Below, in pieces: positions 2,620 to 54,374 of a stretch of DNA of 64,000 nt. The position numbers were made by a program, and so were the translations under genes. Origin of the DNA: Tortispora ganteri (lineage: Eukaryota); assembly GCA_003707115.1 (NCBI GenBank), contig PPNB01000008.1, forward strand, positions 124,001 through 188,000, given 5' to 3'. How positions within the stretch are numbered: the stretch's first letter is position 1; each line of letters begins with the position of its first letter. The notes under the pieces were generated by a model. The model was given only the letters and a program-made list of their open reading frames with translations. It was not told the origin of the DNA and ran no database searches.

Positions 2620-4452
2620 TGTGATGTAGGATTACGAGCAAGAGCAGCAGAAAGGCGAATCAGTAAAAAAATTGAGGGAATGCTTCTAAATAGTGTGTCT
2701 TGTTGATATATGCCGAATATATACAGTACTGTAACTGCCGTGTAAATTGTTTGTTGCTGTTCTATATGAGTAGAAAGATGCTAGTCTAAAGATCTATCGA
2801 TCGATGGACGAAATACAGTGGGTGAAGGTGACCTTTTAAGTGCGAAAACCGAGGTCCTGCTGAATACTAGAAATCTTCTGATGTAGTGAAAGACTGAAAG
2901 TGATTACCGTCGTTTAAGAGATCGCGGACAGTAGCGGTAAGAGAAAAAAAAAAAGGGCTGACAGGCCAGTTATAGTACAAGAAAAACCTGCTAAGGTAAA
3001 TGCGAGCGACAATAATTGAGTAGTGTGAATCTATTCACAGCTGCTGCAATATATCTGAGAGTAAGCGGTAAAATAACTAACCGAAAAGCAGCGGATGAAA
3101 ATGTTGCGGTAGAGAAAAGAGGTAACAAGAACTAGGTGGTAGAAAGATAGGTTTTTCGGCACAAGAGGATTTTTGTGAAAAGAGTGGGTAATTTTAGCTT
3201 CAAAAAGTCAGTAAACTTTATTGACGTTAAAGTATACAAGAGGGTTGTGCTTAGACAGTAAAACAAGGGAGCAGTTTACCAGGGTGCAGGGTTCAAATTG
3301 AGATCGATAAAGAGGTCGCAATTTTTACAGCAACTTAGTGTAAAGTTGGACAGGGTATAGCTAAGTATAGTATATTTGATGCCTTTCATGATTTTATAGA
3401 ATTATTCTTTCATTAGGTAGAGAAGCAAGTTATATATGCAGTTGTAGTGCGAATGAGTGAGGGATGGGAAATTCAGTATGTAAAGCTAAATGCAAGTAAA
3501 TCAACCCTTTCGGGTAGTTTGGATTAGGGTATTCTAAAAATAAGAGAAGGAAAAATAGGATTATGCGTATTCCAGCGAATACGTCGTTATTGAAACTTTA
3601 GTGACCGCGTGGAACTTAGTATCGTTTACGCTCTCCATTTAGCATGTATTTGAGAATCATATAATACTTAACTTGTTCGAGAGTAATAATTATAAGAATT
3701 ATAAGAAAATTAATTAGACAACTTAAGGCACCAGCCAATATACGAATGAGCAGAGAGTTTCCACAATAAGTTAATATCAAAACTTAATCTACCCATAGGA
3801 TAAATTATGGAAAGCTTAATTGGACGTCTGGTTTTATTGCCTATTTAGGTTCATCAATATCACCCTCTTGAGCTCTTTGGAATATCATGGTAGTGCTGAA
3901 AGCTCGTAAGTAATTGTTCAGCTAATTTTTCGATGCGAAATTATGTTTTTTCTAGCAACTGCGTAAATTGATGGATTGATGTGTTACACACGGTAAGATA
4001 TGATATGTAAACTTTTTTATTTTGAAATACATAGATAACGAAACTTTAATTCCTAAAACAGATATGAATATTGAGTGTCGTTTCTGGAATAACTTAGATC
4101 CTTTGGGCCCGTTTAGCAAAAATTAGATGACTTTGAAGCAAGCTCGAGAAGTCTATATGCAATCAGTTTACTTCATATTGCTCTGGGTTTTGAGAACTTT
4201 GCTTAAGCTTGCACAATATTATCTTGCATATACCCACTACGTTCAGAATGCTACGATGCCAAGTAAGTGGAAATTAATACCTACAATTGTAAATGTAACA
4301 TAAGAAAAGCTAAGACAAATAAGCTTCATATTATTGTTTATACACCAATAAATAGACAGTATGCAAAGTTAGTCGAATTATAGTTTATGTAATACGGTAT
4401 TTGAATATGTAGTTATTTGTATGTGAAACAATAGCAATTATTCTTGTAGAAC

Positions 4453-8651: not shown

Positions 8652-8764
8652 TCTATATTAGTTGAGCATTTTTGAGTGCTTCATCCTCTATTTTTTTTAT
8701 TTCGTTTGCATTTTATGTCTGTGCATAAAATATATAAGGTCATTATTGCATGCATTAGTAAGAT

Positions 8765-10612
8765 TTACTCGACGGTTTCCAAAAAGAAATAGTTACCAGA
8801 GGCTTTCTGTTCTTGGTCGCGCTGGGATCCCATTTTGTTGATACGAGGACGGAATGAGTTCGGGTCGCGGCGGAAAGTGACATCGAGATTCTTTAAAAAT
8901 TTGTTGCAACCAGTAAGCAAGCCTTGAGGAGTGGTTGCAACAGCATCAACACCAGGAATACCTTCATATACAATGACACGGTCGGCGAGGTATGTGGCCA
9001 TAATGAAATCATGCTCGACAACGAAAGCAGTTTTCTTGGCATGCAAAATGAAACGTCTGATGACTTTAGCGCAAATAATACGCTGTTCAGAGTCCAAATA
9101 TGCAGAAGGTTCATCGATCAAGTAAATGTCCGCAGGTAGACCGAGGGCCAAAACGATAGCGACACGCTGTAACTCACCACCTGACAAGTTTTGTACTTCT
9201 AAATCTATTAAATCATCAATGCGTAAAGGTTTGACAACGTCAGTCTGAAATTGAGGATGCAAGAAAGAAGCACGAATTTTCTTGTGGAACAATTGTCGTA
9301 CAGTTCCTGAAAATTTGGGAGCGATTTTTTGTGGTTTCATAGACACTCTCAGTTCGGGGATCTTCTGATTGTTATCGGGAGCCAAAGCACCAGCTAGCAT
9401 TCGAATAAATGTTGTCTTTCCTGTACCATTTTCACCCATCATGACAATGATTTCCGAGTCGGTGAACTCGCCGGCTTCTACGGTGAGCTTGAAGTCACCG
9501 AGAGTCTTCTGCATTCGTGGGTACTCGAACGAGCGCGATTTATCGACGGGGATCAAATCAGTAGCGTCTGCGAGACGAAACTCGAGTGATTCTGTGCGGA
9601 AACGCATGTTTTCAGAAGGGATATTGCCGTCAAGAAAGATATTAATACCTTCGCGCACAGATGAGGGGAGTGTGACCACACCGTACACGGAAGGCACACC
9701 GTAAAGAATACAAATGAAATCGGACAGATAGTCAAGCACAGAGAGATCATGCTCGACAGCAATAACGTAACAATCGTGACTAGTCAGTAGAGATCTAATG
9801 ATATTGGCGGCATTGAGACGCTGCTTGACATCGAGGTAAGAGGACGGTTCATCAAACATGTAGACATCAGCTTTTTGGACAATAGTTAAACCGATAGCAA
9901 AACGTTGAAGTTCACCACCAGAGAGCTGAGAAACTTCACGGTTGAGAACGCTCTTAAGCTCAAGGACTTGCTCTACTTGAGCGCGGTTAGGCAGTTCTGA
10001 ACGCTCATCAAGAAGTTTGCCGACTTGTGTGACAGGCCCCTTTATGGCACGCGGAAGATGATCAACATACTGCGGCTTGATTATGGCCTTCAGATTGTCT
10101 TCAAGGATCTTTGTGAAGTAGTTTTGAAGTTCAGAACCTCGAAAGTGCTTAAGAATATCTTCCCACGTAGGCGGGTTGTCGAACCTACCAAGGTTAGGCT
10201 TTTGCTTGCCTGAAAGGATCTTCAAAGCGGTGGATTTACCAATACCATTTGAGCCGACCAATCCAAGCACTTGATTAGGTCTTGGTGTAGGGAGCCTGTG
10301 AAGCTTGAAAGAGTTCGCAGTGTATCTGTGCGTCACTTCTGATTCCAGATTGGTAGGCAAGTTGATGATCTGGATAGCGCCAAAAGGACATTTTTTAGGA
10401 CAGATACCGCATCCAATACACAAAGTCTCAGAGATAAACGCGATTTTAGATTCAGGGGTAACTTCAATACACAGCTTACCCGTTCTGACAACAGGACACG
10501 CTTTTTTACATTCTTGACGGCATTTCTTTGGCTTGCATTTGTCAGTGGACACTATTGCAATTCTTGTAATTTTGTCTGACACAGCAGATTTCGACTGGTT
10601 GACTTTTGACAT
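8765..10612 (-). CDS. RLI1: ABCE1 ribosome-recycling Fe-S ABC ATPase
   Basis: [15 protein letters not shown] and [13 protein letters not shown]e-S motifs, two ABC cassettes with LSGGELQR. Confidence 0.97.
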
Positions 10613-10859
10613 TGTTAATGCAATTTATACACCTGATTATCCACTTGCAGAATATGTACTTTTACAACACCGCCTTTTTCTTAGGCCTATGATTTCTATC
10701 GTTTGTGTGGTTTTTTTTTTACCTCTTTCACAGGCAAAGTCTTCAACCACGTCCCAAAAACTTTTGAAAAAAATTATTAGAGTTTCACAACCCTAATATT
10801 ATTAATTTTCTTGTTGATAATTATACGGCTTTCATAAAAATGAATTGCCTATTGAATAG

Positions 10860-11760
10860 ATGTAAATTTGTCAAATAATGGATATACGGTTTTCAAACGC
10901 TTTATTCAAAAAAATTTTAGATTCAAGTAACCTCTGAGAGATCTACAGCGCATGAACTTCTTTATGTCATCACGTCAGGTTTGCTGAGCAATTAACTGGG
11001 TTACAATTGGTGGGGGAAAATGCCCTAACCCATGCACGAAATGTATAAATAAGCTGATCGTTTGCTCAGCAACTGTAGTTTCTTACTTATAATAGGCGGG
11101 ACCTGATGAGTGCTAGGCCGAGGGAAAAACCTATGCGATAGCCTTACCGTTGGCTGGATTACTACTCATTGAAACATAGTTTCTTTATGTGGTCTTCTCT
11201 TTGCTGAACGTGACGTGTTGTATGAATATTGTATACATGCAATTGCTCTAATCGCATTGTTATTTTCTATCAGCATTAATGCACTCGAACGGCTGGTCTA
11301 TTATGAGCTAGGGCAAATATTATTGTAGAAATCCGAAATATGATATGATTTATGTTCTGTCTAAAAATAAAAGGGCTATAATTTTCATCTTGATGAGTGT
11401 CAAGGTGCGTAGGGGGTATGCCTCTGCTGTATAGACTGAATGCTGAGTTGTTTTTTTTTTTGGCTGAACGTTCGCTCGATCAAGTTGATATTTGGATCGA
11501 GCTAGAGCCGTACAACAGCACCGTCTTTTGTTGACCCTTTTTCATGTAGATTTCCATATACGTAGATTTACTAAATGAACAATGCTCTCTGCAAAGCTCG
11601 ATGGTTACATTTTTCTTATTGTGCTGGATCTGGAACAAAATTAAGGACGAAAAAATAGAGCAGATGTCGCAGCCGAAAACACCCAGCTTTTTACCCACTC
11701 GACCACATTTCCGTCTATTATTTATCGCGTTGACTTCTTTAACAAAACACATTTTTGTGG
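10860..11760 (+). ncRNA. Candidate telomerase RNA (TER); boundaries approximate
   Basis: Template-like CCCTAACCC 11023-11031; 5'/3' pairing AAATAATGG..ACGG (10873-10889) with CCGT-CTATTATTT (11711-11723); several long helices; Sm-like ATTTTTG 11751-11757; TACTAAC 11805-11811; no credible ORF. Folding done by eye only. Confidence 0.5.
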
Positions 11761-11804
11761 TTATAAATAAGACGAGAAATATCAGATAACTTGTCCTCAT
11801 ATAA

Positions 11805-11836
11805 TACTAACATTAATACCTACTATTTTCTCTTAG
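11805..11836 (+). other. Perfect spliceosomal branch point (TACTAAC) with pyrimidine tract and TAG acceptor
   Basis: TACTAAC 11805-11811; first downstream AG at 11835-11836 after TATTTTCTCT. Confidence 0.55.
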
Positions 11837-12059
11837 AAGGAAAAACACTGCGTACAGAGAAAGTGATAACTAGCTGAACCTTTGACACTATTCACTATAG
11901 TCGAGTAGAAGAATCGTTGGCTAGAACTAGTTTTAAGCTCAATTTAAAGTAATTAATGCACAGTATTTACTGCTGTATATACTGAATTTGTTTTGGATTT
12001 CTATATACTTCCCCTCTGTTTACTTCGAAATTAGATAGTGTTTTGTCGACTTGCCAAAA

Positions 12060-15000
12060 ATGGACGAATCTACAACAATATCGAATCTAAATAATGCATC
12101 TAAAATTGATTTTGAGCTAGACCCAGAGCTCTACGGCTTAAGACGGAGCTCACGCGCACACCATAGTGTTGCCCGTCTGGTAGAAGAAATAGATGATTCG
12201 GATCCCTCACCGAAAAGAAGAAAGACCTCAAAATACGTCTCTGAATCAAACTCTGATACCGATGACGATATGCCTCTTATAAAGCAGCACAAACCTCGGC
12301 AAAAGAGAAAGTCGGCTACACCTCAGCCTGATATCCCTACTGAAATACGATTTTCTACGCGTAACCAGAAAGTCATGAACTATAACGAGGACGACGATGA
12401 CGATCTCTCGCTCAGTGACGAGGAAATGCCTAATGACTCCTTAGGGGATGATGATGACGATAATGACGATGATGATGAAGACGATGAAGACTATGGCTAC
12501 GGTACTAAATCTAAATCGCGATCTAAAAAACAGGTTTCGACTCCGCGAACGGGCACTTCAACACCCCAGATAGAAGAATTCAATGAAAATGATCGCGGTA
12601 TAGATCAAGTCTTAGATCATCGTCCGATTGGAATCTCTGCTGATACTGCGTCCTATGACTCTTCTTCCCTTGATCCCTATTCTGACCTAGAATACTACGT
12701 GAAGTGGCAAGGTGCTTCTCATATTCACAATTCTTGGGAAACTTATGACCAATTAAAAAACCTTCGAGGAACAAAGAGGCTTGATAACTACATAAGATAT
12801 CAAGTATTTTATGACCAGGAAGTACGAAAAGATCCTATGACTACTAGAGAGGATATAGAATCAATGGATATTGAACGGGATCGTCAGCGCGAGAATTATG
12901 AGGAATACAAAACCGTCGACAGAGTAGTCGCTGCTCGTCGTATATTAGATGGTTCTGTCAGCAGACTGCAATATCTCATTAAATGGTGTCGACTTTATTA
13001 TGATTCTTGTACGTGGGAAGACGCACAGCTCATAGCTAAACTTTCCCCTAAAGATGTCGACGCATTTCGGTCACGCGAATCGTCTAGAATTGCTCCGGCT
13101 TTGTCTATTGTTTATGGCCCACAAAGACCACCATTTGAGAAACTCACTGAACAGCCAACTTACATTAAGGGTGGCGAACTGAGAGATTTTCAATTGACTG
13201 GTTTGAATTGGATGGCTTTCCTGTGGTCGCGTAATGAAAACGGAATTTTGGCGGACGAAATGGGGTTGGGCAAGACTGTTCAAACAGTTGCTTTTCTTTC
13301 GTGGCTCATTCATGCGCGAAAACAAAATGGACCGTTCCTTGTCGTAGTTCCATTGTCCACGATGCCGGCATGGCAGGAAACTTTTGATCTATGGGCCCCT
13401 GATATCAATTACATTGTCAATCTTGGTAACAGCAAAGCGAGACAAATTCTTAGAGAGCACGAATTTTTTGTGAATTCCAACATAAAAAAGCCGAAATTTA
13501 ACGTTCTCTTAACAACTTACGAATATATCCTAAAAGACCGCAGCGAACTCGGGTCTATCAAATGGCAATTTTTGGCTGTTGACGAAGCTCATCGCTTAAA
13601 GAATGCAGAGTCCGCTCTGTATGAATGTCTTAAGAACTTTAAAGTTGCCAATCGTCTTCTAATCACTGGTACTCCACTACAGAATAATATAAAAGAGCTT
13701 TCTGCATTAGTGGAGTTCTTGATGCCTGGCAGAATAGCTATTGACCAAGAAATCGATTTTGAAAATCCTGACGTGGACCAGGAAAACTATATCAAGTCTA
13801 TCCATGCTAGTTTGCAACCTTACATTCTACGTCGACTTAAAAAAGATGTCGAGAAGAGTTTACCCTCAAAATCTGAACACATTTTACGCGTTGTGATGTC
13901 TGACATGCAGACAGAATACTATAAGAATATTATCTCTCGCAATTATGCTGCACTGAATGCTGGTGCTACTTCCGGCTTGCAGATGAGTTTGTTAAATATT
14001 ATGATCGAGCTCAAAAAGGCCAGCAATCATCCATACCTTTTCCCTCACGCCGAGGAACGTTATTACTCAATGGTTGGGAATGACCGCTCACGCGAATCAA
14101 CACTCAAGGGGCTGATTATGACTTCTGGAAAGATGGTACTTCTTGATAAGCTGCTAAGTCGTCTTAAGAAAGATGGTCACAGAGTATTGATTTTTTCTCA
14201 AATGGTTCGAATGTTGGATATTTTAGGCGATTACCTGACGATAAGGGGTCATACCTTTCAAAGGCTCGACGGTACTATTCCTGCTGCTTCAAGGAGAATA
14301 GCTATTGACCACTTTAATTCGCCAGACAGTAACGATTTTGTGTTTTTGCTGAGTACTCGTGCAGGTGGCTTAGGCATCAACTTAATGACTGCTGATACTG
14401 TTATCATCTTTGACTCTGATTGGAATCCGCAAGCTGATTTACAAGCCATGGCTAGAGCTCACAGAATTGGCCAAAAGAACCATGTTCATGTATATCGATT
14501 TGTTTCAAAAGATACTATTGAGGAAGAAGTTTTGGAACGTGCTAGACGCAAAATGATTTTGGAATATGCTATAATATCTCTTGGTATGATCGACAATGGT
14601 GGTAACAGCTCCAAAAATGAACCTACGGCCAAAGAACTTAGCGTTATTCTGAAAGCTGGCGCTGGGAATATGTTTAGGGCTACAGATAATCAAAAGAAGC
14701 TTGAGGAAATGAACATCGATGACGTTCTTGAACATGCTGAAGACCATGTTACTACACCAGATGTAGGTCAGTCTCATCTTGGTGGTGAAGAATTCTTGAA
14801 GCAGTTCGAGGTCACTGATTATAAGGCTGATGATGTTGAATGGGATGATATTATTCCTGCTGATGAGCTCAATCGAATCAAAGAGGAAGAGAAGAAAAGG
14901 CAAGAGGAATTATTTCTTCAGCAACAAATTGAAATGTATTCCCGACGTCGTACAGCAGCGGTCAAAAGTGCGACATCGACTCCTATGGGTGATGACGGCG

Positions 15001-16436
15001 ATGACGAAGATGATGACGAAGGTACTGGCACGGATGGTCCTCGCCGAAAACGAGGCAGAAAGCCTAAGGTAGATGTTGAAGATTCGAATAACATCTCCGA
15101 AAAGGAACTTAGAATGATTTATCGTGCAGTGTTGAAGTTTGGAGATCTTGATAGCGACTGGGAATATTATTTCTCTGAAGGTATTTTGCCTACCGGAAAA
15201 AAGGAACTTGTAAAAGAAGTTTTTTTTGAAATGAGAAAGGCAGCCGAAGAAGCTGTTAAGGCTGAAGAGGCCCGGCGTACTGCTGTCGCAGAGGAGATTG
15301 CTAAGCTTAAGGCAGAGGGAAATATTGAAGCTTCAACACGACTTCGCAGACAAGAAAGAAAGGGTGTTTTTATTGAGTTCCGTGGTGTTAAAGGTTTAAA
15401 TGCCGAGCTTATTGTTGATCGGCCAAAGGATATGGCTATCATTCGTGAACTTATTCCACTCGAGCAAGCCAATGCTGACTTTACTTTGAATTATTCTGTT
15501 AAACCTGCTCATGGTTGGAGTTGCGATTGGGGTATCAAGCAAGATTCTAGTTTATTGGTCGGAGTGAGAAAATACGGTTTTGGTTCATGGTCTGCTATTC
15601 GTGATGATCCCTTCCTGGGTATGAGTGACATTTTTTTCCTGGATGAGTACAAAGGTGACAAGAGATCAAAAGATAAGGCTCCAACGGTAGTAAAATCTGA
15701 AGATAGAGATAACTCTTCCAAGCCTGAAGGGAATTCCCCTGAAGGAAAAGCGGAAACTGCTGAAATTAAGCAAGAAAACGACAACAATGCAGACACTCCT
15801 ACTCCATCAGATAAGCCGCCTAAAAGTGAGAGATCTGCAGCTAAAATACCTGGACCTCATCATTTAGCACGTCGCGTTGAATATCTACTGCACGTTATTA
15901 AAGATGCTAAGTATGGCACGTCTAAAGCTGTGGTTAATGGTTCACGAGAAACGCCTAGTATAGCGCCCAAGAAGAAGAGAAAGCCCGCCGCATCAAACTC
16001 GAAAGGTTCAACTGAAACAGGAGTGACCAAGTCATCTTCTAAGAATGCAGCAGGATCGCAACAGAAAGAAAATAAACCTACAGAATCTCCTAAGGGTACT
16101 CCAGCACCCGGCAGTAACAAAGTTATGGAAGATGATTATTCAGAGTATGAGAGCATGGATGAAGGCGAATGCAAAACCACGATGCATCCTGTGCGAAAGT
16201 CATTGAGACGTTTGAGAAAAGGTGGCGACGGCCTAGACAAGAAAGAATGGGTGGCTATTCTAAAGAAGGAACTTACTACTGTTGGAAAGTATATAGACGA
16301 TATAGTCAAGGGGTATTCTGGCGACCAAGAGAAACGCAGCCGACACTTATGGGTGTTTGTGAGTTATTTTTGGCCTGCAAAGGTATCAAGTTCGAAAATT
16401 CGGACTATGTATGAAAGACTCAAAAGCTCTGCTTGA
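12060..16436 (+). CDS. CHD1: Chromodomain helicase DNA-binding chromatin remodeller
   Basis: Tandem chromodomains, SNF2 ATPase ([25 protein letters not shown]), SANT/SLIDE-like region; first ATG at 12060. Confidence 0.96.
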
Positions 16437-24811: not shown

Positions 24812-27058
24812 TTATATTGATGACAGACTGTTATAAAATTGCAGTACTTCCGGGTGAGCAGTGACCTTTCTGAAATCAAAATTCTTGATTTCCAGTGTCT
24901 CACGCGAAGTGGCTCGGGACAAGGCTACATAGGCCTGGCCATTCTCGAATACACTTCCAAGATCCACAGTTACTCTCTGCAATGTCTGCCCTTGAGACTT
25001 GTGAATAGACAGTGCATATGCTGGTATTAGTGGTATTTGCTTTCTCGTCGCATACGGCACTCCAGGTGGATTCTCCAAAGTCCAGGTCTCCTGTTTCACG
25101 AGGACCTCATGACTCTGTCCATCTGCTAATTTGAATCGAACTAGCGGGTATTTCTTTCCTTTAGTTGCCGCACCAGCGGCCTTCTTATAGAGCTCTTTCA
25201 TCCTTACTAATCGTTGGTCCCAAAACAAATTGTTGATATCACTATTGTTCGAGTCATTCTTAGCTTCTTCGAAAACAGAATCAGCGGTAGATATTTCTTC
25301 AGTAAACTCAACTAATTCGTTATCATCAGCTTGCTCGCTTTCTATCGTTATGGATTCCTCGGCAAAAACATCAGTCTCGTATTCCTTGAGACTATCGATG
25401 AACCGACTTTCAGATTCTGACTCTTCTATCAGCTTGAACACTTTATCCCAGTGCACGCCGCGCACAGAGCCCTGTTGAATACGAATCATCTCCGTCCATA
25501 AGTCTTCCGAATAGAATCCAACTATCTTGCCTAAACTTCCATTAACAAGAGTAGGCGATAAGTTCTTGATAAGCATAACCTGGCAGTGCTTCTTTAATGC
25601 TAGTTCTTCATGAGCCATGCATGATCCATTGAGCATCCGCTTCTGATCGTCCGCTGCAAGGTTGTTGAGAAATATATCATGAGAGCGGAATAGAACGTAA
25701 GCATCAGGTAAATTCTCCATCTCTTTTCTATTGGCTTTGTCAACTTCGTCCCTTCTGGAAAACAACCGCGTAGGCGTAAGACCATCGTCATAATGCACAG
25801 AACGTTCCAACTCTTTAAACTTTTGGATGGTAGAGTCGGACATGCGTCCAGTTCGCATTTGGTTCAGCATTTTGACAAACTCTCCGTCACGCTGTCGAAA
25901 GACTTGCTTTAGGCCGATTGTATGGTCTATAATTTCACTCCAGCATTGCGCTTTGAATGAGAACACAGCATTACGTTCTTTCACAACAGGAGGAAGTTGG
26001 AAGAAATCGCCAGTAAAAACTACTTGTATTCCGCCGAACGGAGACGAATTTCTGCGTATTTCTTTGGCGACTTTATTAAGTTTATCAAGGAGTGTACCAT
26101 CAATCATTGAAATTTCATCAATGATGAGAACCTCACAGGCTAGCCATCTCTGTTTCGCTTGTCTGCTTTGTTTTATTTTTTTGAGTAGCTGTTTCGTATC
26201 ACCATTGCCAAGACCGATACCAGCAAAACGATGCAATGTGGTTCCTTGAATGTTACAGGCGGCCATTCCAGTCGATGCCGTAATAGCTAAAGCTTCATCG
26301 TCCAATATTCGGCGAAACTCTGCTATAATTTGCTGTAACAACACCGATTTACCCGTACCTGCAGAACCAGTAAAAAAAACATTTTTGCGTTTATTTACAA
26401 CTAGATCCAGAACATGTTTTTGTTCTTCAGACAACGTGATTCTATCTCCGGTTGAACCAACCGATAACACAGACGATTCACCAACCGTGTCTCCAAAGAC
26501 GGAAGGTTTTTCGACTGCTAACTGTTCATCAGGTGGAGCAGGGTCAGACGTAACTTGCGTTGACTGTGTTGGCACATCAACAATTTGCTGCTGGGCAGGC
26601 GCAGGCGTAGGAGGGAAGAATGATCCTTTCTGTAGACTATAAGAGCTTCTTACAGACTTATCAGCAGTAATTACGCGCTTTGTTGCAGCAGCTGAACGAG
26701 AAGTCGAATAGTACGATGATTGGCGCTTGACGGGCAGCTCTTCTTCCTGCGAGACAAAGAGACTTGATTGAACTGGAGCATTCTGAATTTGAGGCGGCAC
26801 TTTTTTAATATACTTTAAAGAGTCATCATTGTCCCAGTCAAATGAAAAATCGTCATCAAGCATGGAATCTAGTTGTTGTTGGATCTGCTGGCGACCAGTC
26901 GCCGCCGTCTGGAACGAAGACGTGCGGGTGATCAAGTTGAGTGTTGAAGGGTTCGAGCTAGCTAACGGCTTCTGCGAAGAAGACTGGGGCTTAAAAAATG
27001 AATTTCTATGAGCTGACATTGTGCGACGTAATATAACTGCTCGAGGCCAGATGGTCAT
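24812..27058 (-). CDS. PIF1: Pif1-family 5'-3' DNA helicase
   Basis: FFTGSAGTGKS, IIDEISM, FGGIQVVFTGDFFQLPPV, SIHKSQGQTL, GQAYVALSRA; ATGs at 27058 and 27019. Confidence 0.92.
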   Translation of the reverse strand: MTIWPRAVILRRTMSAHRNSFFKPQSSSQKPLASSNPSTLNLITRTSSFQTAATGRQQIQQQLDSMLDDDFSFDWDNDDSLKYIKKVPPQIQNAPVQSSLFVSQEEELPVKRQSSYYSTSRSAAATKRVITADKSVRSSYSLQKGSFFPPTPAPAQQQIVDVPTQSTQVTSDPAPPDEQLAVEKPSVFGDTVGESSVLSVGSTGDRITLSEEQKHVLDLVVNKRKNVFFTGSAGTGKSVLLQQIIAEFRRILDDEALAITASTGMAACNIQGTTLHRFAGIGLGNGDTKQLLKKIKQSRQAKQRWLACEVLIIDEISMIDGTLLDKLNKVAKEIRRNSSPFGGIQVVFTGDFFQLPPVVKERNAVFSFKAQCWSEIIDHTIGLKQVFRQRDGEFVKMLNQMRTGRMSDSTIQKFKELERSVHYDDGLTPTRLFSRRDEVDKANRKEMENLPDAYVLFRSHDIFLNNLAADDQKRMLNGSCMAHEELALKKHCQVMLIKNLSPTLVNGSLGKIVGFYSEDLWTEMIRIQQGSVRGVHWDKVFKLIEESESESRFIDSLKEYETDVFAEESITIESEQADDNELVEFTEEISTADSVFEEAKNDSNNSDINNLFWDQRLVRMKELYKKAAGAATKGKKYPLVRFKLADGQSHEVLVKQETWTLENPPGVPYATRKQIPLIPAYALSIHKSQGQTLQRVTVDLGSVFENGQAYVALSRATSRETLEIKNFDFRKVTAHPEVLQFYNSLSSI

Positions 27059-31612: not shown

Positions 31613-32245
31613 ATGATCATCTTATACGCCTTGTCCTTGGTAGGCATAATAGTAGGCTTTGTTGCACTTACGCTTTCAATTGCATCAGGCCTGTACTACT
31701 TGTCCGAACTCGTAGAAGAACACACTACGTTCACCAAAAGATGGATAGACAGAGCAATCCTCGTGACTATCGCTGTACATGTCGCACTCGTGCTCTTCGA
31801 CAAGTTCCCCTTCTGGCTTAGCATAGTTTCTATTGTTACGCAACTTATTTACAGGCAAAACCTTGTCACGTTCCCTTATATCCAGCTTACCAGCCCGACA
31901 TTCATCCTTTCGTGCTCCCTCATGTTACTGAACCATTACCTGTGGTTCTCACACTTCACCAATCTCTCGGATCAGGCAAAGTATCTGTATGACCCATACT
32001 CTCAGATTAATCTTCCGAGCTTTTCGCAGATATCCTCTTTCTTTGGACTCGTCATTTGGCTCGTACCTTTCTCTCTATTCATATCGCTCACTGCCGGCGA
32101 AAACGTTCTCCCGGCAGCCAGCGACGGCTCTGCGGTTGGCGAGTCTAAAGCACATCGTTCTACGCTCATCAAAGTCATAATTGATCGTCTTAAAGACTAC
32201 TTTCAATTCATTACCGGTAACAGAGACCGTCGCGGTATCCTATGA
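31613..32245 (+). CDS. SVP26: Svp26/TEX261 ER-Golgi cargo adaptor
   Basis: LTLSIASGLYYLSELVEEHT, NHYLWFSHF, FISLTAGENVLP. Confidence 0.92.
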   Translation: MIILYALSLVGIIVGFVALTLSIASGLYYLSELVEEHTTFTKRWIDRAILVTIAVHVALVLFDKFPFWLSIVSIVTQLIYRQNLVTFPYIQLTSPTFILSCSLMLLNHYLWFSHFTNLSDQAKYLYDPYSQINLPSFSQISSFFGLVIWLVPFSLFISLTAGENVLPAASDGSAVGESKAHRSTLIKVIIDRLKDYFQFITGNRDRRGIL

Positions 32246-32520
32246 CCTATCCTATATTCTTCGCGCTTTTGCGCTCTCCTTCCACACTCAATGGTAGCGC
32301 CGCTCGCTTACACAGCATTTGTTATTTAATTCACTTCTTAAAATTTTTCTTTTCATCTTTTATGCTACAATTTGCCACCCTGAATAATGCTGTTGCTGGT
32401 TACTGCAGCCTGCTGCATCGCTCGCCTCTGGCACCCGGTCTCGTTCCTGACGTGTTTTGCTGCATCATTTTTCCTCCCACCACCACCTTTCTACCTTTAC
32501 AACCTGCAAGAAAAGAAATA

Positions 32521-33309
32521 ATGTCGCGGCCCGAACAAGAAGCGCCTCCAGAAATTTTTTATAATGACTCAGAAGCCTCAAAATATACAGGATCTTCTCG
32601 AATACAGCGTATTCAAGCTGAAATGACCCTCAGAGCCCTCGATCTCCTCTCGCTGCCGCCATCTTCATACATCCTCGATATCGGCTGCGGCTCTGGCTTG
32701 TCCGGCGAGATTTTGTCAGAAGAGGGCCACTATTGGGTAGGCATGGATATAGCTCCCTCTATGCTTCAAATTGCTCTAGAGAGAGACGTAGATGGCGATA
32801 TCTTGCTTAGTGATATGGGCCAGGGCGTGCCGTTTCGTCCTGGCTCATTTGATGCAGCCATAAGTATATCGGCGATCCAATGGCTTTGCAACGTCGACTC
32901 ATCGGAACACGACCCGAAATACCGTCTCTCTAAATTTTTCCAGACACTTTTTTCATCCTTAAAGCGTGGTGGGCGTGCTGTCTTTCAGTTTTATCCTGCC
33001 AACGACACGCAACGTGACACCATCTTGCATGCCGCGAAAGTAGCCGGATTCACGGGAGGACTTGTCGTTGACGATCCCGAAAGCAAAAAGAACAAGAAGT
33101 ACTATATGGTCCTTGTTGCTGGTGGATCCCCTGGCGATATAAACCTTGATGGCGTGGCTATGGACAACACTATGAAACCGAAATCAAAAAAATCAACTGA
33201 ATCAAAGAAGCAATATATCATGAGGAAAAAGGAACTAATGAAACGAAGAGGTGAGCGCGTCGCAAAGGACAGCAAGTATACTGGTAGGAAACGAAGAATA
33301 CGATTTTAA
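32521..33309 (+). CDS. BUD23: 18S rRNA m7G methyltransferase
   Basis: MSRPEQEAPPEIFYND, LDIGCGSGLSG, SKYTGRKRRIRF; true ATG at 32521. Confidence 0.95.
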   Translation: MSRPEQEAPPEIFYNDSEASKYTGSSRIQRIQAEMTLRALDLLSLPPSSYILDIGCGSGLSGEILSEEGHYWVGMDIAPSMLQIALERDVDGDILLSDMGQGVPFRPGSFDAAISISAIQWLCNVDSSEHDPKYRLSKFFQTLFSSLKRGGRAVFQFYPANDTQRDTILHAAKVAGFTGGLVVDDPESKKNKKYYMVLVAGGSPGDINLDGVAMDNTMKPKSKKSTESKKQYIMRKKELMKRRGERVAKDSKYTGRKRRIRF

Positions 33310-35202: not shown

Positions 35203-35226
35203 GCCCTAACTATAGGGCTGTGACTG
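35203..35226. promoter_or_regulatory. RPL11 promoter: inverted Tbf1-like sites (GCCCTAA / TAGGGC) abutting Homol-D box TGTGACTG
   Basis: GCCCTAACTATAGGGCTGTGACTG about 100 nt upstream of the RPL11 ATG. Confidence 0.65.
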
Positions 35227-41780: not shown

Positions 41781-44700
41781 TTAAGATTTGATCTCAGCAA
41801 CCAAATCACTACCATCAACGGAATCGCCTTCTTTCACCTGAACGGAAGCAATCACACCGCTAGCAGGTGCAGAAATAACCATCTCCATCTTCATCGCAGA
41901 AATAACAACAAGAGGGTCACCCTTCTTGACTTCAGAGCCTTCCTTCACGCGCACTTCCACAACAACTCCTGACATAGGCGCACCAACTTGTCCGGGGTTG
42001 GAAGGATCAGCCTTGGGACGGGTCACAGACTCAACTGCAGCGTGCACATCGTCAACTGCAACCTGACGAATCTCACCATTCATCTCAAAGAAAACTTCGC
42101 GTTGCCCAGTGTTCTTTGACAAAGGTCCAATAGCAAGTAGTTTCATTATCAGCACCTTACCCTTCTCTATCTCAACGGCAAACTCCTCGTTGATCGCAGG
42201 CCTCGTAAGGAAATAGCGCGTAGGTACAACGCTTAAGTCACCGTACTTAGCAAGGAACTTCTTGTAGTCCTCAAATACTTTCGGGTACATAGTATAGCTG
42301 GCAACATCGTACTCTGTAATCTTGCCAAATTTCTTAATAAGATCCTTCTTGAGCTGATCAAAGTCGATAGGGGGAAGATACAATCCAGGTCGCTTCGTAA
42401 GTTTAGGGCGACTATTGCGGAGAATCTTAGTCCTGAAAGGTTCAGGGAATCCACCGTACGGTTGTCCCATCAAACCCTCAAAGAAGTCCAAAACGGAATC
42501 AGGGAAATCAAGTGTGTCTGCACGTTCCACAACCTCTTCTGGAGTAAGTTTGTTGGAAACCATAAACTGAGCAAGATCACCCACCACCTTGGAAGTCGGC
42601 GTGACCTTCACGATATCGCCAAGAAGAGCATTCGCCGCCTTATATGCCTTCTTAGTTTCTTCCCATTGAGTTCCAAGACCAAGCTGTTGGGCTTGGAAAA
42701 GCAGGTTAGTAAGTTGCCCACCGGGAATCTCGTGCTCATAGACTTCAGGATCAGGTCCCAAAAGAGGTGCTTCAAAGCAACTGTAAAGTAGTCTCATCTG
42801 AGCCCAGTAGCTGTCAATAGCACGGATATGCGCACGGTTCAAACCGGTATCAATGCTTCCATCTAATGAGGCAATTAATGCAGTGATTGACGGTTGTGAA
42901 GTCATTCCAGACATCGAATTAGATGCAGCGTCAACAACATCAGCACCTGCAGCAGCACAGGCAGCCATCGAAGCAACACCAGTACCAGCAGAATCATGAG
43001 TGTGCACATGGATAGGGAGGTCGGGATACTTAGCACGGATAGCACCAATCAGCAGAGTAGCAGCCTTTGGCTTCATAGTACCAGCCATATCTTTGATTCC
43101 AAGAATGTGTGTGCCCATACCAACAATTTCATCAACCATTTTCATGTAGTATTCCAAGTTGTACTTCTTGTCAGGATTAAGCATATCACCTGAATAACAT
43201 ACTGTGGCCTCAACAACACCACCAGCTTTCTTGACAGCAGTCACGCCAACCTTCAATTGCTCTAGATCATTGAGAGCATCGAATACACGGAAGACATCAA
43301 CTCCGCATTTCTTGGCTTGCTCGCAAAAGTGCTCAATAGCATTGTCGGGTAATGACGAATAAGCAACACCATTGGCGCCACGCAGCAACATTTGGAAGGG
43401 GATGTTAGGTACAAGAGCACGCAGCTTCTTAAGACGATCCCAAGGATCTTCGTAAAGGAAACGCATAGCAACATCAAATGTAGCACCACCCCAACATTCA
43501 AGAGCAAACGCACCAGAGAGGGCATAGGAAGTGCTTGGGGCAATATTGGCTAAATCAATAGTGCGTACACGTGTTGCTAGCAAACTCTGGTGGGCATCAC
43601 GCCAAGTAGTATCCATAACCAATGTTCCTTTGAAGTCTCTGACTGCTTTAGCAAATGCTTCAGGTCCATCTTTGACCAGAATGTTTCTCCAGCCTTCAGT
43701 ACATGGAGTACTAACATCAATAGGTCCATCAGGGCCTTGAAGTGTAGGAATGAGAGCATCTGTCGTGAGCTTGGGTTCGCCAACTTGGCCTTTAATGGAA
43801 CTTCCGTTGACAGCTAAGTCTCCTAGATAAGCGAGAAGTTTCTGAGCACGGTTTTGAGAAGTCATCATATCGAACAACCCAGGAGTATCGTCGATGAAAG
43901 TAGTCCAACAGCTACCTTTAATGAAAACATCATGAGTAAGTAGCGCGAGCAAGAATGGAATGTTAGTCTTAACACCACGAATACGGAACTCAACCAAAGC
44001 TCGGATGACTTTTCTTCGAGCAATTTCATAGGTAGAGCCAGAACACGTGCACTTGACCAACATAGAGTCGTAGTGAGGAGAAATGATAGCACCAGCAAAG
44101 CCGTTACCACCATCCAAACGAACACCATTACCGCCAGAAGATCGGTAGACCTCTATTTTACCAGTGTCAGGCTGGAAATTTTTGAGAGGATCTTCTGTAG
44201 TGATACGGCACTGAATTGCAAAACCACGAGTGGTGATGCGATCCTGAGTCAGACCAAGTTGAGGCAAAAGGGCACCTGCAGCAATTTGAATCTGAGCAGC
44301 GACAATATCGATACCAGTAATCTCTTCGGTGATGGTATGCTCGACTTGAATACGAGGATTGATTTCAATGAAGTAATGACGGTTTTGGTTATCAACCAAA
44401 AATTCGGCGGTACCAGCGTTGCTGTAGTTAACGCTTGTAGCAAGCTTGACAGCGTCGGCGAGAATGGCGTCACGGACTTCAGTAGGTAAGTCTTTAGCAG
44501 GAGCAATTTCGACCACTTTCTGATGGCGTCTCTGAACGGAACAGTCACGCTCGAACAAATGAACAACGTTACCGGCGGAGTCACCGAGCAGTTGAACTTC
44601 GATATGCTTGGGCTTGTCAAGAAAACGTTCGATAAAGCAGGTTCCGTTGCCGAAAGCAGTTTTAGCTTCGGAAGTTGCGCGGAGGAAAGCGTCGCGAATA

Positions 44701-45308
44701 TCGTCGCCTTCGCGAACGACACGCATACCTCTTCCACCACCACCAAAGGCGGCTTTGATAATGACGGGGTAGCCATACTTCATTACAAATTCCTTAGCAT
44801 GTTCTACGTCCTCAATTGGGCCGGGGGTACCAGGAACCACAGGGACATCGCATTCGATAGCGAGTTTACGGGCTGAGACCTTGTCACCGAGAGCGTCAAT
44901 GACCTCGGGAGAGGGGCCGATCCAGGTAATACCCGCGGCTATTACTTTGCGAGCAAACTCGGAGTTCTCAGACAAGAAGCCGTAGCCGGGATGTATCATT
45001 GAAACGCCATGCGCTTTAGCAATTTTGATAATTTCATCCATCTGAAGATAAGCCTGCACCGGAGTGTATTGGCCGGTTGTGCCAATTTGATAAGCCTCGT
45101 CAGCCTTTTGGCGAAACATAGAAAGCCGATCCTCGTGTGAGTAAACGGCGACGGTAAGCATAGAGAGCTCGTGAGCAGTACGGAAAATTCTAATAGGGAT
45201 TTCACCACGATTAGCAACCAGAAGCTTTGTCATTGAGCCCAGGATTGTGCTTTGAGCACGGATTCTGGTGACAGAAGCCTTTGGCTGTTCTTGTCCTTCG
45301 GCAGTCAT
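41781..45308 (-). CDS. PYC1: Pyruvate carboxylase
   Basis: ANRGEI biotin carboxylase, RDAHQSL carboxyltransferase, AMKME biotinylation motif. Confidence 0.97.
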   Translation of the reverse strand: MTAEGQEQPKASVTRIRAQSTILGSMTKLLVANRGEIPIRIFRTAHELSMLTVAVYSHEDRLSMFRQKADEAYQIGTTGQYTPVQAYLQMDEIIKIAKAHGVSMIHPGYGFLSENSEFARKVIAAGITWIGPSPEVIDALGDKVSARKLAIECDVPVVPGTPGPIEDVEHAKEFVMKYGYPVIIKAAFGGGGRGMRVVREGDDIRDAFLRATSEAKTAFGNGTCFIERFLDKPKHIEVQLLGDSAGNVVHLFERDCSVQRRHQKVVEIAPAKDLPTEVRDAILADAVKLATSVNYSNAGTAEFLVDNQNRHYFIEINPRIQVEHTITEEITGIDIVAAQIQIAAGALLPQLGLTQDRITTRGFAIQCRITTEDPLKNFQPDTGKIEVYRSSGGNGVRLDGGNGFAGAIISPHYDSMLVKCTCSGSTYEIARRKVIRALVEFRIRGVKTNIPFLLALLTHDVFIKGSCWTTFIDDTPGLFDMMTSQNRAQKLLAYLGDLAVNGSSIKGQVGEPKLTTDALIPTLQGPDGPIDVSTPCTEGWRNILVKDGPEAFAKAVRDFKGTLVMDTTWRDAHQSLLATRVRTIDLANIAPSTSYALSGAFALECWGGATFDVAMRFLYEDPWDRLKKLRALVPNIPFQMLLRGANGVAYSSLPDNAIEHFCEQAKKCGVDVFRVFDALNDLEQLKVGVTAVKKAGGVVEATVCYSGDMLNPDKKYNLEYYMKMVDEIVGMGTHILGIKDMAGTMKPKAATLLIGAIRAKYPDLPIHVHTHDSAGTGVASMAACAAAGADVVDAASNSMSGMTSQPSITALIASLDGSIDTGLNRAHIRAIDSYWAQMRLLYSCFEAPLLGPDPEVYEHEIPGGQLTNLLFQAQQLGLGTQWEETKKAYKAANALLGDIVKVTPTSKVVGDLAQFMVSNKLTPEEVVERADTLDFPDSVLDFFEGLMGQPYGGFPEPFRTKILRNSRPKLTKRPGLYLPPIDFDQLKKDLIKKFGKITEYDVASYTMYPKVFEDYKKFLAKYGDLSVVPTRYFLTRPAINEEFAVEIEKGKVLIMKLLAIGPLSKNTGQREVFFEMNGEIRQVAVDDVHAAVESVTRPKADPSNPGQVGAPMSGVVVEVRVKEGSEVKKGDPLVVISAMKMEMVISAPASGVIASVQVKEGDSVDGSDLVAEIKS

Positions 45309-46159
45309 TATCGGCAGAGAAATGCGGATTTAACGCAAAATTACAAGAAGAAAAAAGGACAATCAGTCGAGTAACAAAAGAATTAAGCGATTACTATCGA
45401 TTTGCAGATGTATTTCGACTCTAATTCTAGAGAAATGCGAAAGGACAAGAGATAAAGGAAAAATGATGTTACGTTTCGGATCTCTTATATAGGGGGAGTT
45501 AGCTAGGGTGGTAGGAAACAGAGCTTTATTTCTACTCCGAGCCAATCCGGTAAGAGCAATTGAAAGTAGTCCCCTAACCCTAGCTAATAAGGTTTGTAGA
45601 GTAATTTCTCTGTGTAGGCCGAGAGCGTGTTGTAAATGTTAGAAGGGCGATGTGTAGGCTGGAGGTAGGGAGGTGAATTGAAGAGTTGAGTGTTTGCGTG
45701 TCTTATTAATCAAGAGGAGGTCCTTTTAAGGATGCAGGATTGTACAACAGGATTGTACAACGGGAACGTACAGAGCAATTGCGACGCTTTACCCACCAAA
45801 ACGTGGGGAACTCCTATTGGGACTAGTGGAACGATCCGTTAGCCCATTTTGGATCTCGGTTACTGCGGAGAGAGAGCATAAATAGCCGGAGCGGCAAAGA
45901 ACTACGGTTATTTTATGGGGAAACTGCAAGCTACAATGTTGAAAAAACGAGTGTGAATAATTAGGAAATGCTTTAAATGTGGTAAGATATGTAATTGAGA
46001 ACTGACGGAAAGAGTAGAGCGGTGCAGTGTCCGGAAACTAACGAAGATCAAGTGAATAGCCGCTGGGCGCTTAACTCTATTTTCGATGAATCTGGGGTAT
46101 GTGTGTAAACTCGGAGGTAGTTTTCGCTGGATTTAGATTCGTAAAAAGCTTGAGCAGTG

Positions 46160-53764: not shown

Positions 53765-54374
53765 GTATTCACGATGCAAATAGAGGTATTATTGTGTGGC
53801 AAAATCCTTATAGGATGTTCGTCAAGATTGTTGTTGTGCCTTCTCCACGGGCTTTGCTGTTAACGGTCGCCGTCACCGTACTTACTTGTACTGACGCGGT
53901 GTTGTATGTCTGCAAAAAAGTATACAAAAGGGACACACCGCCTATTCGGTGTACCAATCTAGCTTGAGATGCGAATGCAGCTGTAAACCAAATAGTCCAG
54001 TGACAAAACTACGTTAATGCGGACTCGGTTGTACGGGGTATGGGAGCGCTTGATGCAATTCAGTGACGAAGAAAAAAGGGCAAAATCTGGGGTCGCAACC
54101 ATGACAACACTGATGTGGGTTTAGGTTTACTGATGTCAATAGCGGCTGTTATTGGATAATTGCTAGATAAAGTTGACAACCGCGTTTGCGGGCACCGCGG
54201 CTAAAAAAAACCTTCATTTGTCTATTAACTGGTGTTCGAGGCTCTAAGCATTGAGAGACCGATCCAATACTGTGTCAATACCTGTAGTTGGCGGTACTGC
54301 AGTGTATGTAGCGGTATACGGATTATATTTTTAAAATTGCATCGTACAAACATCGCTAACTTCAGGTTCCGACA

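Follow-up and report, generated by a model that had tools for sequence, protein, structure and literature searches.

A candidate telomerase RNA gene in the intergenic gap between RLI1 and CHD1 of the yeast Tortispora ganteri

What occupies the long intergenic gap that separates the divergently transcribed genes RLI1 and CHD1 in Tortispora ganteri is the question addressed here. The window analyzed, a stretch of 64,000 nt from contig PPNB01000008.1 (128 kb when both strands are counted), is compact and AT-rich, with 79% of its length under open reading frames (ORFs), 20.6% intergenic and 37 gaps of a median length of 218 nt, among which the RLI1/CHD1 gap, with 1447 nt, ranks second in length. 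A preliminary description of this DNA had proposed that the gap harbors a gene for telomerase RNA (TER), a class of RNAs which, as far as the cited work of Waldl et al. indicates, is still mostly without annotation in the deep lineages of budding yeasts. The reading favored here is a plus-strand RNA polymerase II (Pol II) gene for telomerase RNA which would start upstream of position 11023 and use the motif CCCUAACCC as its template, and a probability of roughly 0.45 is given to it. The part of the proposal that concerns the 3′ end, namely a telomerase RNA gene with its end at 11757–11766 on the plus strand, appears rather probable from the motifs found there. These estimates weigh a low prior, since a genome should contain a single TER gene for some hundreds of long gaps without ORFs, against the modest weight of the template-like motif and the strong weight of the 3′ cassette. 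All six sequence features listed in the preliminary description were found again at their positions, but the balance among them has changed: a 3′ cassette now supports the telomerase RNA reading, whereas the helices and the Sm heptamer occur at chance level and the template-like motif has a rival explanation as a Tbf1-type site.

The 3′ end of the candidate RNA

The strongest evidence is located at the 3′ end of the proposed RNA. An Sm-type heptamer, ATTTTTG, had been noticed 3′ of a helix thought to join the two ends of the RNA. It does occur at this place but is non-specific, with 22 copies (11 + 11) in the window, where the broader class of AU4-6G sites counts 102 members. As an AU5G motif, it agrees with the AU(5-6)GPu consensus of yeasts except for the following base, which is a U and not a purine, as far as this consensus is given in PMC3851723. 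Reading on in the 3′ direction revealed three elements absent from the preliminary description: a 5′ splice-site-like AUAAGA with an A at position 1, a branch site with the perfect sequence UACUAAC, and a stretch rich in pyrimidines that ends with a 3′ splice-site-like UAG (Table 1). As judged from the motifs, the layout of this cassette is that of the 3′ ends produced by spliceosomal cleavage in fungal TERs. According to published accounts, the spliceosome performs only the first splicing step in many fungal TERs, just 3′ of the Sm site. The splice cassette of TERs occurs in fission yeasts, filamentous ascomycetes, Candida and Hansenula polymorpha and is absent in the Saccharomycetaceae; in the TERs of S. 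cryophilus and S. octosporus, the 5′ splice site is described 14 and 27 nt past the mature end, respectively (PMC4299874).

The heptanucleotide UACUAAC is not enriched in the window (8 copies vs 6.3 expected), and the Sm-like site at 11751 is the only one of the 102 AU4-6G sites that has a UACUAAC within 100 nt downstream. With the composite defined as an Sm-like site associated with [AG]UAAG[UA] within 40 nt, UACUAAC at 15–120 nt and YAG at 5–45 nt, the two strands of the window together yielded a single copy. It coincides with the predicted end of the RNA and shares its strand with the template-like motif, whereas first-order Markov simulations expect 0.013 (strict pattern) or 0.087 (looser 5′ site) occurrences per window. 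The simple pair of an Sm-like site and a UACUAAC no more than 100 nt away is expected 0.52 times per window, and the weight of this association therefore comes from its presence on the right strand and at the right end of the 1.4-kb gap, which would happen by chance in about 0.6% of cases, and in less than ~0.6% once the other two elements of the cassette are added. These figures are optimistic because the pattern was set after the sequence had been seen, although each of its elements is defined in the literature.

An ordinary intron, situated in the 5′ untranslated region of CHD1, was considered for the same elements and rejected. No canonical GU 5′ site occurs nearby, and the sole GT[AG][ACT]G[TA] partner, GTGCGT, lies 432 nt upstream.

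According to the mechanism proposed for the telomerase RNA gene, transcription would start at ~10850–10950, downstream of a Tbf1-type site and an AT-rich TATA-like sequence, and an Sm ring would assemble on AUUUUUG near the 3′ end. The spliceosome, using UACUAAC as the branch site, would cleave at AUAAGA (position 11767) and accomplish the first splicing step only, the A at intron position 1 preventing the ligation of the exons. The freed 5′ exon would then be trimmed toward the Sm site, to give an RNA of ~0.85–0.9 kb. With CCCUAACCC as the template, the reverse transcriptase would copy GGGTTAGGG-type repeats, while a template extended to AUGCCCUAACCCAUGC would yield a 12-nt TTAGGG-containing repeat.

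A gene of this size fits the local spacing. The gap had been described as several times longer than most others, which holds (1447 nt vs a median of 218 nt), and a gene at ~10870–11836 leaves 258 nt to the ATG of RLI1 and 224 nt to that of CHD1. The spacers left by an RNA gene of ~0.9 kb are within the usual range of the gaps: eight of the 12 divergent gaps measure 104–325 nt in total and three others 610–834 nt, and the tandem gaps are mostly of 179–403 nt. The G+C content reaches 0.36–0.41 at 10850–11750 vs 0.31–0.32 in the flanks (10550–10850 and 11750–12050), and CHD1 has its own TATA-like sequences, read by eye, ~85 and ~57 nt before the ATG. The longest ORF-free gap of the window (2620–4452, 1833 nt) is located between two minus-strand genes, contains a TTAGGG at 3524 and gives no match to Rfam at gathering score.

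Table 1. Features of the RLI1/CHD1 gap and related loci, in positions of the window.
Feature	Position	Strand	Remarks
Proposed mature RNA	10860–11766	+	~0.85–0.9 kb; 5′ end placed at ~10850–10950; ORF-free
Candidate template CCCUAACCC (DNA CCCTAACCC)	11023–11031	+	1.5 repeats; would specify GGGTTAGGG
Sm-like site AUUUUUG	11751–11757	+	sequence motif
AUAAGA, 5′ splice-site-like, A at position 1	11767–11772	+	10 nt after the Sm-like site
UACUAAC, perfect branch site	11805–11811	+	38 nt after the 5′ splice-site-like motif
Pyrimidine-rich tract CUACUAUUUUCUCUUAG	11820–11836	+	ends in 3′ splice-site-like UAG (11834–11836), 25 nt after the branch A
Distal arm UUUUUGGCUG/CAGCCGAAAA	11457–11679	+	with an 8-bp hairpin and CGUCUUU/AAGGACG
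11-nt perfect inverted repeat TTGCTGAGCAA/TTGCTCAGCAA	10981–10991/11062–11072	+	would enclose the template-like motif; 70-nt loop
Tbf1-type site AACCCTAAT (also read as AACCCTAA)	10788–10796	+	sequence motif; 179 nt upstream of the RLI1 ATG
Largest ORF of the gap	11480–11800	−	ATG ORF, 106 aa
RLI1	8765–10612	−	left flank, ATG toward the gap; 615-aa ORF with Fer4_RLI and two ABC_tran stretches
CHD1	12060–16436	+	right flank; 1458-aa ORF with SNF2, chromo and CHD1-like_C domains
Pyruvate-carboxylase-like gene	41781–45308	−	851-nt upstream gap (45309–46159)

The template-like motif and the TTAGGG-type sites

Several observations speak against a telomerase RNA gene at this locus, and they concern the elements of the 3′ end, the template, the folding of the region and the homology searches. 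At the 3′ end, AUAAGA shares 5 of 6 positions with the AUAAGU of Aspergillus, is non-canonical at positions 1 and 6 (A1, A6) and was recognized after the sequence had been viewed; in addition, the Sm-like site can pair with an ACAAAA located just upstream.

With respect to the template, CCCUAACCC corresponds to 1.5 times TTAGGG; a TER template should be complementary to more than one telomere repeat of its own genome, with terminal redundancy. The TER template of N. crassa is likewise given as 9 nt long (PMC3592445). Within the 5′ half of the proposed RNA, reading by eye shows two CCC runs only around 11023. The 9-mer is flanked on both sides by AUGC, so that a longer template of 16 nt, AUGCCCUAACCCAUGC at 11020–11035, with a 4-nt terminal redundancy and specifying a 12-nt repeat, TTAGGGCATGGG, is a possible alternative to plain TTAGGG. 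The 4-nt match of the flanks is weak evidence for such a repeat, which would fit the pattern of TTAGGG plus an extension described in neighboring lineages.

The published telomere repeats lower the expectation of a plain TTAGGG. None of the Saccharomycotina listed by Cervenak et al. (GBE 2020) possesses it, and the text of the same paper states that all species analyzed lack it; the prior for TTAGGG telomeres in T. ganteri is lower on this account. Variants resembling TTAGGG are listed for the deep branches, namely TTCAGGG/TTTCAGGG in Lipomyces, TTAGCGAGGTG in Trigonopsis vinaria and TTAGTCAGGG in Yarrowia, and the repeats of the neighboring yeast families are presented as very diverse, often with GGG missing (Cervenak et al., GBE 2020). 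A TTAGGG-like ancestor has been inferred in the field and this is repeated in later papers, while no living budding yeast with plain TTAGGG is reported in the papers cited. That T. ganteri has kept the ancestral system as a whole, i.e., a plain TTAGGG copied from the 9-nt CCCUAACCC template together with an A-first spliceosomal 3′ cleavage as in Aspergillus, is considered doubtful.

The motif CCCTAACCC had been claimed as the template of this locus. It is present on the plus strand at 11023–11031, and its excess in the window (two copies vs 0.11 expected) is counted in favor of the telomerase RNA reading. At the same time, CCCTAACCC is not locus-specific because the second copy, within CCCTAACCCTAG at 45572–45583, sits in the promoter of the pyruvate-carboxylase-like gene, 264 nt upstream of the latter. 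An 11-nt inverted repeat occurs in the same upstream gap, with TTAGCTAGGGT at 45499–45509 and its exact reverse complement at 45577–45587, separated by 67 nt, the right arm overlapping CCCTAACCCTAG; the whole segment 45498–45587 looks like paired promoter sites for a TTAGGG-binding factor. The gap 45309–46159 was considered as an alternative TER locus and discarded, with no Sm/branch composite found in it, and its motif, included in the inverted repeat, was judged to be a promoter element.

The TTAGGG/CCCTAA hexamers of the window amount to 12, of which 5 fall in the 20.6% of the window that is intergenic, at 119–905 nt from the nearest ORF. One of them (CCCTAA, 35204–35209) is located midway in the divergent promoter of an LSM-domain gene and RPL11, at 119 and 120 nt, as expected for a Tbf1-type control of ribosomal-protein genes in this yeast. 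As far as the sequence allows one to judge, the distribution of the hexamers is the pattern of Tbf1-type sites. Such motifs are described as marking the promoters of ribosomal-protein and small nucleolar RNA (snoRNA) genes across many Ascomycota, sometimes as palindromic pairs, and the promoters of ribosome-biogenesis genes marked by Tbf1 in S. cerevisiae are said to tend toward several sites. Another of these five hexamers, in a putative Tbf1-type site at 10788, precedes the proposed RNA start by ~70–100 nt, with an AT-rich TATA-like sequence next to it, and could serve the promoter of RLI1, that of the RNA gene, or both. In a promoter-like arrangement, a TATA box, TATAAATAAG, is located at 11044–11053, 13 nt downstream of the CCCTAACCC copy at 11023. 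Because the Tbf1-type promoter-site reading fits it as well, CCCTAACCC alone does not identify a template.

These observations lead to the first alternative, which is that the gap contains no RNA gene and is a long regulatory region common to RLI1 and CHD1, with Tbf1/Tay1-type sites CCCTAACCC (11023) and AACCCTAA (10788), two TTGCT(G/C)AGCAA near-palindromes binding another factor, and the Sm-like site, UACUAAC and tract gathered by coincidence. Besides the hexamers of other promoters (35204 for LSM/RPL11, 45572 for the pyruvate-carboxylase-like gene) and the known habits of Tbf1, this alternative finds support in the AAAAAAATTTT at 10908–10918, which resembles the ribosomal RNA processing element (RRPE). 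Other long gaps exist in the window, four of 729–879 nt and one of 1833 nt, and the structural statistics of the region remain at chance. However, the 11023 site is distant from both genes, by 411 nt from the ATG of RLI1 and 1037 nt from that of CHD1, in a window where most divergent gaps do not exceed 325 nt in total, and about 1 kb of a compact genome would be left unexplained. Moreover, chance alone would place the cassette composite on the plus strand of the gap with a frequency of only 1e-4 to 1e-3 (0.013–0.087 per 128 kb, scaled to 1.4 kb). An extended regulatory region is regarded as unlikely, even if it is the best of the alternatives.

Folding, homology and the remaining alternatives

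The helices proposed for the telomerase RNA were compared with mononucleotide shuffles (n = 500) on the basis of their duplex energies. The helix joining the ends, AAATAATGG/ACGG (10873–10889) with CCGT/CTATTATTT (11711–11723), exists but 17% (narrow limits) or 51% (wide limits) of the shuffles do as well. The pairing of TCATCA (10967–10972) with TGATGA (11391–11396), also present, is reached by 41% of them. For the distal arm, TTTTTGGCTG (11457–11466) with CAGCCGAAAA (11670–11679), the proportion falls to 1.2%, but the arm had been chosen post hoc. The arm does contain the announced hairpin of 8 bp, with GCTCGATC at 11474–11481 and GATCGAGC at 11495–11502, and, after a recount, CGTCTTT is placed at 11522–11528 and AAGGACG at 11643–11649. 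That the segment 11457–11679 represents a yeast-type three-way-junction region is possible and unsupported.

The 11-nt inverted repeat which surrounds the template-like motif (Table 1) has a duplex energy reached by 1.4% of the shuffles, and was also picked after the fact. Both of its arms are near-palindromes, and for this reason they may be two protein-binding DNA sites. As an RNA helix of 11 bp, it would enclose the template with no room left for a pseudoknot, unlike the known TER cores. A run of 12 U at ~11450–11461 and A-rich stretches at 11363–11376 and 11650–11655 occur in the region, and from this single sequence no pseudoknot, triple helix or template boundary helix is supported. The folding of the whole region is no better than that of the shuffles (z of −0.98 and −1.01 for the plus and minus strands), and sliding windows of 150 nt give no consistent signal, with a local z of −3.8 (plus) and −2.5 (minus) at 11363–11512. 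Finally, no P6.1-type hairpin (4-bp stem, loop NUNGN) was found in 10860–11770. According to PMC3592445, the junctions of budding yeasts lack P6.1, which is present in filamentous fungi and vertebrates, so that this negative result excludes only a junction of the filamentous-fungus type.

The homology searches were similarly negative. A cmscan of 10400–12200 against 4227 Rfam families (E ≤ 10) returned only two chance-level matches to unrelated families, and no match at gathering score was obtained for the whole window. Searches of this type are known to miss the TERs of distant yeasts; the Rfam result therefore weighs little, and yet it counts as a failed homology test. The best relatives of CHD1, 54–61% identical among 6770 protein matches, come from Lipomycetaceae, Trichomonascus, Dipodascopsis, Nadsonia, Sugiyamaella and Yarrowia, and this low identity indicates a deep branch of the Saccharomycotina, one without close relatives among the proteins searched. 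At such a distance, the non-coding gap is not alignable. A metagenome scan with CHD1 retrieved a single locus (L001, 52–54% identity), which lacks RLI1 and CCCTAACCC, and in two further sequencing sets (X3 and X5) the matches were limited to short stretches of conserved coding sequence, none of them in the gap. The contigs obtained from two DNA sets (X1 and X2) are identical, with 0 differences over 8700–14575, and a second assembly of the same reads thus agrees with the locus base for base, which is counted in its favor. Among the matches listed by a literature search for a TER between RLI1 and CHD1, no relevant report was found.

A box C/D snoRNA was considered, on account of the UGAUGA at 11105 and 11391 and of CUGA motifs detected by eye, and abandoned, with no terminal stems and no Rfam match found. 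The undecanucleotide TGATGAGTG occurs twice in the gap, at 11103–11113 and 11389–11399, and is box C-like; it also resembles the core of the polymerase A and C (PAC) promoter element.

The second alternative retains the 3′ end and shifts the 5′ end. An Sm-class RNA cut by the spliceosome would start at ~11090–11150, after the TATA box at 11044–11053, and CCCTAACCC would be its Tbf1-type promoter element; the resulting RNA of ~0.6–0.65 kb would be either a TER with another, unrecognized template or a new Sm-class RNA. The splice cassette and the Sm site hold wherever the RNA starts, and the succession of a Tbf1-type site and, 13 nt further on, a consensus TATAAATA recalls the snoRNA promoters of S. 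cerevisiae, in which Tbf1 sites and TATA boxes are reportedly arranged in this manner. The diversity of telomere repeats in the neighboring families, often devoid of GGG according to the papers cited, would also accommodate another template. Against a later start, no CCC run occurs in 11032–11540 and no alternative template stands out by eye, Rfam gives no U1, U2 or other Sm-class family at the locus, and the distance of ~490 nt to RLI1 would be longer than eight of the 12 divergent gaps, if shorter than the three of 610–834 nt. This alternative is estimated to be distinctly unlikely.

The last alternative, a fast-evolving small protein gene such as the 106-aa ATG ORF found on the minus strand (Table 1), or a gap giving only unstable or cryptic transcripts, is highly improbable, as this ORF has no Pfam family and, in a search of 1.84 billion representative proteins, 0 matches at E ≤ 0.001. 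Its strand is not that of the Sm/splice cassette, and an ORF of its length should arise by chance ~0.3–0.6 times in the six frames of 1.4 kb with this base composition (a rough estimate). The absence of a credible ORF in the gap, as asserted in the preliminary description, is confirmed to this extent.

Other features were noted elsewhere in the window. An intron-like element of 62 nt (54304–54365; GTATGT ... CGCTAAC ... CAG) ends 10 nt before the start of the MDM10 ORF (54375), and MDM10 may thus have a short upstream exon. No other canonical intron candidate noticed in the window was convincing, which suggests that introns are few in this genome. An ORF for a WBS/Bud23-type methyltransferase (32242–33309, 355 aa) overlaps by 4 nt, at its start, the end of the Erv26 ORF (31613–32245). 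Its domain begins only at about residue 131, and translation may in fact start at a later position, or the gene may contain an intron. A gene for a PIF1-family helicase (24812–27058) is located 13 kb from the candidate. Pif1 is an inhibitor of telomerase in S. cerevisiae, and the proximity of the two loci is probably coincidental.

Comparison with known telomerase RNAs and promoter sites

A telomerase RNA with a CCCUAACCC template, if it exists in such a lineage, would make the inference of a TTAGGG-like ancestor directly testable, and would show whether A-first splice sites already served in the formation of 3′ ends before yeasts and filamentous fungi diverged. In the event that plain TTAGGG holds true, T. 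ganteri would offer, by the papers cited, the first case of canonical TTAGGG telomeres in the Saccharomycotina, and would be a living intermediate between the telomerase RNAs of filamentous fungi and those of yeasts. If the locus is a regulatory region instead, it would be a promoter of the usual kind that carries Tbf1-type sites.

In its layout, the candidate resembles the TER of Hansenula (Ogataea) polymorpha, a budding-yeast RNA of less than 1 kb, the 3′ end of which is located at an Sm-like site followed by a 5′ splice site, UACUAAC and a 3′ splice site. In H. polymorpha, as described by Smekalova et al. 2013 (PMC3851723), the Sm-like site occupies positions 683–690, the 5′ splice site GUGAGU 690–695, UACUAAC 720–726 and the 3′ splice site 738–740, and mutation of the branch site or of the 5′ site impairs the TER. 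UACUAAC thus follows the 5′ splice site by ~30 nt, whereas the successive intervals measure here 10 nt (Sm-like site to 5′ site), 38 nt (on to UACUAAC) and 25 nt (branch A to UAG). The likeness concerns the layout. The canonical GUGAGU of H. polymorpha is replaced here by AUAAGA, and the telomere repeat, given as TGGCG3-4, is not TTAGGG-like (Cervenak et al., GBE 2020).

In its first base, the 5′ splice-site-like motif resembles that of the Aspergillus TERs. In Aspergillus, the TER has an Sm-like site and, 3′ of it, a 5′ splice site reported as AUA(A/C)GU, and with A in place of G1 the second step of splicing is prevented (Kannan et al. 2015, PMC4299874). The candidate would share with the TERs of Aspergillus and Neurospora, as far as these are described in PMC4299874 and PMC3592445, a short 9-nt template, an A-first 5′ splice site following an Sm-like pyrimidine motif, and branch and 3′ sites; the telomeres of both genera are of the TTAGGG type, which the candidate template matches. 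It differs from them in several respects: these RNAs measure 1.5–2 kb and display a vertebrate-like P6/P6.1 junction, no P6.1-type hairpin being found here, and the motif reads AUAAGA vs AUAAGU in Aspergillus.

Another counterpart is the TER of Yarrowia lipolytica, also a deep-branching budding yeast. Its RNA of ~950 nt, with an Sm site at ~920 and candidate 5′ splice-site and branch motifs downstream, originates from a locus found by a search for 1.5 telomere repeats (Cervenak et al. 2019, PMC6746865). The intergenic position, the similar length proposed for the RNA, the 3′ Sm-like site and the downstream splice-like motifs would be common to both. In contrast, the repeat of Yarrowia is the 10-nt TTAGTCAGGG, its locus is described between homologues of FRE2 and FRE3 and not between RLI1 and CHD1, and it was validated by RNA-seq, deletion and complementation, whereas the present candidate is proposed from its sequence.

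The comparison also extends to the Tbf1-type promoter sites of ribosomal-protein, ribosome-biogenesis and snoRNA genes, which are described as sometimes multiple or palindromic. The intergenic TTAGGG cores found near growth-related genes, at 10791, 35204 and 45572, are similar to these sites. However, a promoter site leaves unexplained the Sm/splice cassette, the ORF-free excess of 1 kb and the 411 nt to the nearest ATG.

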